From Escherichia coli (GTDB lineage Bacteria > Pseudomonadota > Gammaproteobacteria > Enterobacterales > Enterobacteriaceae), in assembly GCF_003334785.1 (NCBI RefSeq), contig NZ_QOWV01000009.1: a stretch of DNA of 64,000 bases. One strand, written 5' to 3'. Position 1 is the stretch's first letter. Each line of letters opens with the position of its first letter. The position numbers and the translations under genes were made by a program. Under the pieces are notes generated by a model. It ran no database searches. It saw only the letters and a list, made by a program, of their open reading frames with translations, and was not told the DNA's origin. Of the stretch, positions 4,708 through 5,226 are shown in pieces.

Positions 4708-5226
4708 CTACGACAGAATACCCAGCGGCCAGTGATGACCGATAAAATACAGGATGCCTGCGGAAATCACCCCGGCGACAATATCGTCGATCATGATCCC
4801 CATGCCGCCATGCACATTGCGATCAAACCAGCGGATCGGCCACGGCTTCCACATATCCAGAATACGGAAAATCACAAACCCGGCGGCAACCCACTGCCAG
4901 TCATTGGTCGGCAGCGCCATGAGCGTGATCCACATACCAATAAATTCGTCCCAGACAATGCTGCCATGATCGTGCACACCCATGTCTTTCGCCGTTTGAT
5001 GACAAAGATAGACGCCGATACAGATCCCCAGCATCACCACCAGCGAGTAGAGCTGCCAGGGCAAAAAGGTCATCAGATACCAGAACGGAATCGCTGCCAG
5101 CGAGCCCATCGTCCCAGGAACGATCGGGCTTAATCCACTTCCGAATCCGACAGCAAGTAGATGCCACGGATTACTCATCTTCAGGCGACTTTTCGCGACA
5201 TCTTTATGGCGTGGCAAAATGGTCAT
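4708..5226 (-). CDS. pgpA: Phosphatidylglycerophosphatase A
   Basis: 172-aa [37 protein letters not shown]... recognised as PgpA; last gene of the nrdR-ribD-ribE-nusB-thiL-pgpA cluster. Confidence 0.93.

Follow-up and report, generated by a model that had tools for sequence, protein, structure and literature searches.

The thiL–pgpA overlap of Escherichia coli and the choice of the pgpA start codon

Where does translation of pgpA begin, and what does its overlap with thiL mean for the expression and the sequence of the two genes? The question is raised by a window of 64,000 nucleotides of Escherichia coli DNA (the whole stretch analysed), whose locus is of the E. coli K-12 type: dxs–yajO run along the plus strand, pgpA–thiL–nusB–ribH–ribD along the minus strand. 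The sequence-only reading had placed the end of thiL at 5204 and the start of pgpA at 5226 of the same strand, an overlap of 23 nt. The open reading frames, the sequence itself and the RefSeq annotation all confirmed these positions, and placed both genes on the minus strand, which the earlier reading had not named (Table 1). The gene identities were confirmed by family profiles. ThiL scored 647 bits with NF004350 (cut-off 441) and 398 bits with TIGR01379 (cut-off 184), PgpA scored 331 bits with NF008288 over residues 7-170 (cut-off 226), and the Pfam domain PF04608 was found at residues 24-161 of PgpA (E 3.7e-46). An identical 23-nt overlap is present in the RefSeq annotation (locus L001: thiL 1620-2597, pgpA 2575-3093), and the locus is 100% identical in DNA to RefSeq E. 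coli genomes and does not differ from thiL-pgpA of E. coli K-12 (RefSeq; PMC11143247; PMC4681348), gene coordinates and overlap being alike. The locus was present in 5,424 of 5,426 complete E. coli genomes (at least 80% query coverage), and the shared stretch 5204-5226 was invariant across the sampled E. coli lineages. The overlap is already known, being the standard E. coli annotation and described before in the literature: in a 2024 study pgpA was said to overlap partly with thiL, and the two genes have been termed an operon (PMC11143247). The figure of 23 nt presupposes the annotated ATG as the start; it falls to 14 nt if translation begins at the in-frame TTG (5217-5215). Since ATG 5226 and TTG 5217 both lie upstream of the thiL stop, thiL and pgpA form an overlapping same-strand pair with either start.

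Table 1. Features of the thiL–pgpA junction and its surroundings (positions in the window).
Feature	Position	Strand	Basis
thiL CDS (thiamine-phosphate kinase, 325 aa), stop TAA 5206-5204	5204..6181	minus	ORF list, profiles, RefSeq
pgpA CDS as annotated (phosphatidylglycerophosphatase A, 172 aa), ATG 5226-5224	4708..5226	minus	ORF list, profiles, RefSeq
Stretch common to thiL (last 7 codons and stop) and pgpA (codons 1-8) with the annotated start, 23 nt	5204..5226	minus	
Annotated pgpA start ATG, from thiL Tyr TAT and the G of Asp GAC	5224..5226	minus	present in 44/80 species
Alternative in-frame start TTG (Leu4), 9 bases downstream; 14-nt overlap, 169-aa PgpA	5215..5217	minus	present in 73/80 species
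Shine-Dalgarno-like AAGGA from thiL Lys-Gly codons (AAA GGA)	5228..5232	minus	duplex with 16S 3' end, -5.4 kcal/mol
pgpA codons K8-L15 (KDVAKSRL), at or just past the thiL stop, conserved at protein level	5182..5205	minus	80-species alignment
Met17 ATG, sole candidate start outside thiL, rejected	5176..5178	minus	
In-frame TAG closing the pgpA frame, five codons upstream of ATG	5239..5241	minus	sequence, pgpA-frame translation
Internal transcription start of pgpA in K-12, inside thiL, 8-9 nt before the ATG	5234..5235	minus	mapped to the window in this analysis
Candidate -10 TGtTACATT, extended -10, at the right distance	5249-5241	minus	sequence; inferred
Candidate -10 TAGACT, cited in PMC4681348, only 0-1 nt from the reported start	5241-5236	minus	sequence
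Hairpin and U-run, terminator- or attenuator-like, between nusB stop (6259) and thiL ATG (6181)	6201..6253	minus	predicted fold

The mechanical list of open reading frames over-extends two neighbouring genes, ribH (6698-7264; 188 aa from a GTG, against an annotated protein of 156 aa) and yajO (3608-4654; 348 aa against 324 aa). Both extensions are artefacts rather than features, because the list takes the first start after a stop.

The position of the pgpA start relative to thiL

Long annotated overlaps are often start-site errors. A simple possibility is that pgpA starts at Met17, outside thiL, in which case there would be no overlap and the annotation would be over-extended. Met17 is an ATG, its use would remove an unusually long overlap, and Pfam PF04608 begins only at residue 24. 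The junction was compared at the locus from 80 species, comprising Enterobacteriaceae plus Serratia. Between the thiL stop and the invariant Asn-Pro-Trp of PgpA lie 31, 34 or 37 nt, so that the spacing has changed by whole codons only. Within K8-L15, residues D9, A11, R14 and L15 are invariant in all 80 species, although they are encoded by 2, 4, 4 and 6 synonymous codons, respectively, and the third codon positions of this segment are far more variable than positions 1 and 2, as in the undisputed coding region downstream. At residue 17, on the other hand, 47 of the 80 species have Leu and 33 have Met. The Shine-Dalgarno duplex of the Met17 ATG amounts to -0.4 kcal/mol, which is almost none. 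The NCBIfam profile NF008288 begins at residue 7, ahead of Met17. Likewise, distant PgpA proteins carry 12-25 polar or basic residues ahead of the conserved NP-x-H-L-L-A-x-G-F-G block, and in the sampled other genera the annotated pgpA starts lie upstream of the equivalent of KDVAKSRL, the equivalent of Met17 being used by none. A start at Met17, with a Met that is not conserved, invariant residues upstream of it, in-frame indels only and no Shine-Dalgarno sequence, was rejected as highly improbable. No solved PgpA structure, sought to judge the N-terminus, was found in the PDB.

On the other side, no E. coli pgpA start can lie further upstream than the in-frame TAG at 5241-5239. Taken together, the coding conservation of K8-L15, the non-conserved Met17, the upstream TAG, the whole-codon spacing and the long N-terminal tails of distant homologues show that pgpA of E. 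coli must start inside thiL, at ATG 5226 or at TTG 5217, the only two canonical candidates. The earlier claim that the initiation region of pgpA lies within the thiL coding sequence is thus supported, and the one finding named as able to overturn it, a downstream start outside thiL, was tested at Met17 and rejected. The in-frame-only spacing between the thiL stop and Asn-Pro-Trp, together with the coding-type substitution over the 80 species, also shows that the overlap is more than a chance extension of an open reading frame.

The overlap had further been read as constraining both coding sequences. This stood for synonymous sites of thiL, at one Gly codon of the type GGR, and failed at the protein level. 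The motif Gly-Tyr-Asp-His-Phe of ThiL is conserved even in distant lineages, and PgpA residues 1-4 are dictated by the conserved Tyr-Asp-His-Phe of ThiL. Past the Phe the ThiL tail varies, with 1–5 residues of free sequence; free variation in sequence and length is seen in its final three residues as well as in residues 5-7 of PgpA, which lie on this tail. The first seven PgpA residues all fall outside the Pfam domain. The detectable cost of the overlap is, judged by codon usage, one of silent thiL sites (the GGR codon) and not of protein.

The choice between ATG and TTG

A single nucleotide separates the Shine-Dalgarno-like AAGGA from the ATG, whereas the TTG follows it at a distance of 10 nt. 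The codon usage of thiL at the junction was compared with that in the rest of the gene. The junction Tyr codon, from which the ATG arises, is TAT in 44 of 74 cases (59%), versus 56% TAT elsewhere in thiL, and its column ranks third of the seven conserved thiL Tyr columns for TAT; with TAT at neutral frequency, nothing suggests that the ATG is under selection. In 73 of 80 species (91%) the junction Gly codon, which completes the Shine-Dalgarno sequence, reads GGA or GGG, versus 24% GGR in the remaining thiL Gly codons, and its column ranks first of 28 conserved thiL Gly columns (column median 21%). Moreover, GGR and TTG occur together in 73 species and are both missing in 7, with 0 discordant cases among the 80; a Shine-Dalgarno sequence of the thiL Lys-Gly codons, with TTG 10 nt on, is accordingly kept in 73/80. 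GGR is retained in all 40 species that carry both ATG and TTG, and 14 species have no in-frame ATG, GTG or TTG other than this TTG between -30 and +8 nt relative to the thiL stop. These counts come from related, phylogenetically non-independent species, and the seven exceptions represent about 3-4 independent lineages. Among the exceptions, an alternative start ATG is found at -23 in Franconibacter and Entomohabitans and at -26 in Siccibacter colletis, and in Serratia a new ATG lies one base past the thiL stop (TAAcATG). The 80-species comparison, then, is not one that favours the annotated ATG over the TTG; what has been conserved as an initiation module is apparently the Shine-Dalgarno sequence together with the TTG, rather than the annotated ATG.

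Published start-site datasets were also consulted. The TRAINSPOTTER N-terminomics data contained no PgpA peptide, the sole match to 'pgpa' being the word PGPase, and no pgpA entry was found in the listed supplements of TetRP, of the Salmonella riboproteogenomics study and of Giess 2017. INRI-seq (in vitro) and Ribo-RET (in vivo) both gave zero signal at the annotated pgpA ATG. The missing peak says little, because thiL and many other weakly expressed genes were without signal too. In INRI-seq the isolated pgpA site was silent in all five replicates of a cell-free assay which confirmed 70% of annotated starts. The INRI-seq values of 5.3 for thiL and 57.6 for pgpA, considered as a measure of in vivo expression, are apparently abundances in the synthetic transcript pool and were not used.

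The TTG at Leu4 may thus be the real and ancestral start of pgpA, the ATG being a neutral by-product of the thiL Tyr codon TAT; annotators would choose this codon for being an ATG and for the longest open reading frame that it yields. Besides the wide occurrence of the TTG, its strict association with GGR and the exceptional GGR content of the junction Gly column, this possibility is favoured by the position of AAGGA, which at 1 nt from the ATG is too close to act there, and by the in vitro and in vivo data, neither of which has an initiation peak at that codon. Several observations weigh on the opposite side. As a start codon, ATG is inherently far superior to TTG. The internal transcript of K-12 begins just 8-9 nt before the ATG, and no alternative pgpA site stands among the listed INRI-seq entries either. 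TTT at the Phe codon ranks only second of 8 columns, and the TTG may persist simply because ThiL has Phe followed by Ala or Gly; in addition, the species compared are not phylogenetically independent. With these points in view, the ATG is favoured, with considerable reserve, as the main start, and both codons may serve. That the TTG is the real start is a possibility to be entertained seriously, if held to be less than probable. In its fullest form, which we put forward tentatively, AAGGR-N10-TTG would be an Enterobacteriaceae module embedded in the thiL codons for Lys-Gly-Tyr-Asp-His-Phe, and the ATG would be neither the functional nor the ancestral start.

Should the TTG module be true, PgpA would be a protein of 169 aa with a 14-nt overlap, or would exist as two N-terminal proteoforms, and selection on the expression of pgpA would be what keeps the rare Gly codon GGA in thiL. 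Tagged and over-expression constructs would carry three non-native residues if the TTG is the true start, and the lengths given for PgpA in the various genera (163-179 aa) could then be harmonised. What is added here to the known overlap is, on comparative grounds, the case for the TTG and for selection on the embedded Shine-Dalgarno sequence, together with the exclusion of a start outside thiL.

Across Enterobacterales the annotated lengths of PgpA (proteins P0002-P0105) range from 163 to 179 aa purely from the choice of start codon. An ATG, a GTG or a TTG has been chosen, located in the end of thiL or adjacent to it; this is an inconsistency of annotation.

Translation and transcription across the junction

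The junction very probably belongs to a common type of compact operon junction, and translation of pgpA starts inside thiL. The ribosome-binding site of pgpA would sit in the last eight thiL codons, with Lys-Gly (AAA GGA) serving as the Shine-Dalgarno sequence and the following codons TAT GAC CAT TTT G holding both the ATG and the TTG. pgpA would be translated off a read-through ribH-nusB-thiL-pgpA mRNA, and ribosomes ending thiL 11-20 nt downstream could help to load the pgpA site. In K-12, going by published data, pgpA may also be translated from a short-leader transcript which starts 8-9 nt before the ATG.

The overlap had been taken by the sequence-only reading to imply translational coupling of the two genes, and such coupling is plausible. 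In the coupled pairs trpE-trpD, trpB-trpA and galT-galK the genes overlap by 1 or 4 nt (TGATG, ATGA). The thiL–pgpA pair shares with them the common strand and an operon order conserved across Proteobacteria, and as in these pairs the downstream gene has its ribosome-binding site inside the coding sequence of the upstream gene, whose codons make up the Shine-Dalgarno sequence. It differs from them in that the pgpA start lies 14-23 nt before the thiL stop instead of in the classic 1- or 4-nt overlap, so that reinitiation at pgpA would need a backward movement of ribosomes. Coupling may also work through a downstream site sequestered in RNA structure that is opened by upstream ribosomes. No such occluding structure was seen at the junction: the 131-nt RNA had a z of +0.23, and 116 of 200 shuffled sequences folded at least as well. 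Since the junction RNA folds no better than its shuffles, there is no sign of an occluded pgpA site that needs thiL translation. On the other hand, the silence of the isolated pgpA site in INRI-seq fits a weak site that is helped by upstream translation.

An internal transcription start of pgpA inside thiL has been mapped in a transcriptome study of 2014 and confirmed by RLM-RT-PCR (PMC4681348). In Table S3 of that study the start is listed as FWD_(I)-435804 with a leader of 8 nt; going by the coordinate conventions of the table, the leader may be 9 nt. On the minus strand of the window, the start at 5234–5235 maps to a G in ctGGaaaggatATG. The -10 element of this start may be TGtTACATT rather than TAGACT, as judged from spacing; TGtTACATT is proposed here because TAGACT lies too close to its authors' own transcription start. 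A scan for the sigma-70 consensus inside thiL found no full -35/-10 promoter in the region. The K-12 60-mer was present in 1,088 of 5,421 E. coli genomes (~20%), and both candidate -10 elements are polymorphic within E. coli, TACATT being changed to TACGTT or CACGTT and TAGACT to TCGACT or TTGACT (loci L082-L086). Salmonella and Citrobacter are without the candidate -10 hexamers. Because it is polymorphic in E. coli and absent from other genera, the internal promoter cannot be the general mode of pgpA expression.

The pgpA transcript was counted among five 'leaderless' mRNAs of E. coli, a class defined in that study by a leader of less than 10 nt (PMC4681348). It is not leaderless in the sense that the 5' end coincides with the start codon, as transcription starts 8 (or 9) nt before the ATG. 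With leaderless mRNAs of the lambda cI and Tn1721 tetR type it shares only the class label of that study; unlike in those mRNAs, the AUG of pgpA is not at the 5' end, and the short leader carries AAGGA. The 'leaderless pgpA mRNA' may be restricted to particular strains or phylogroups.

A second element that would bear on expression is found upstream, in the form of a GC-rich hairpin predicted between nusB and thiL (-25.4 kcal/mol, z -2.6), which is followed by UUUUCUUUUUU. A pattern scan missed this hairpin because its loop is longer than 8 nt. If formed, it would limit read-through into thiL-pgpA.

It may be, then, that the overlap plays no role in coupling and that pgpA is mainly expressed on its own, by the internal promoter and/or by independent loading of ribosomes, the overlap being a by-product of genome compaction and of drift in the positions of the thiL stop and the pgpA start. 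The confirmed internal transcript could express pgpA without thiL, the terminator-like hairpin would reduce the supply of read-through mRNA, no occluding structure holds the pgpA site closed, and the junction varies from -35 to +26 nt among lineages, as does the length of the ThiL tail. However, the hexamers of the promoter vary even within E. coli and are missing in other genera with a like junction, and the sigma-70 scan was negative. The silence of the isolated pgpA site in the cell-free assay fits a weak site needing help, and even far-removed lineages have kept the gene order and the tight junction. Expression of pgpA mainly by itself, with no part for the overlap in coupling, is considered rather unlikely, and coupling within the read-through operon is plausible.

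Gene order and flanking elements

Distant lineages again show the order ribH-nusB-thiL-pgpA, with thiL and pgpA closely joined; the junctions called there include an overlap of 35 nt, TGATG, TAAcaATG and a gap of 26 nt. In P. aeruginosa, thiL is likewise flanked by nusB and pgpA. As judged by this recurrence, the tight linkage of thiL and pgpA is ancient. In one distant lineage (L092, 1592-2501) the order is nrdR-nusB-pgpA without thiL, and pgpA overlaps nusB by 14 nt. The habit of pgpA of forming tight junctions is thus independent of thiL.

The Keio deletion of pgpA removes 20 nt of the thiL 3' end, for which the deletion was rebuilt with thiL kept whole; the signal of a TPP-riboswitch reporter rose with both deletions, which points to lower TPP (PMC11143247). 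The shared bases must be allowed for whenever either thiL or pgpA is edited. The conserved linkage of the two genes and the effect of pgpA loss on the TPP reporter are hints of a functional tie between the two enzymes. In the window, dxs, yajO, pgpA and thiL (1638-6181) form a cluster of genes tied to DXP and thiamine metabolism, which likewise hints at a link between thiL and pgpA beyond gene order. Such a tie would be of more interest than the overlap itself. For biology in general the overlap carries little weight, the junction being a standard annotated one in the bacterium that has been studied best, and short overlaps between genes of one strand occur frequently.

Between the convergent stops of pgpA and yajO (4662-4730) lies a REP-like palindrome (GCCTGATG...CATCAGGC). 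A search of the region for RNA families gave only a sub-threshold match downstream of pgpA, to the REP-derived naRNA4 (RF02564, 24 bits, E 0.17). Among the records compared, one labelled Chryseobacterium sp. 18061 (L061, CACSKA010000001.1) carries thiL-pgpA of the Enterobacteriaceae type, with a PgpA 88% identical to that of E. coli; this record, a contig of 799 kb, is probably from a mislabelled or contaminated assembly.
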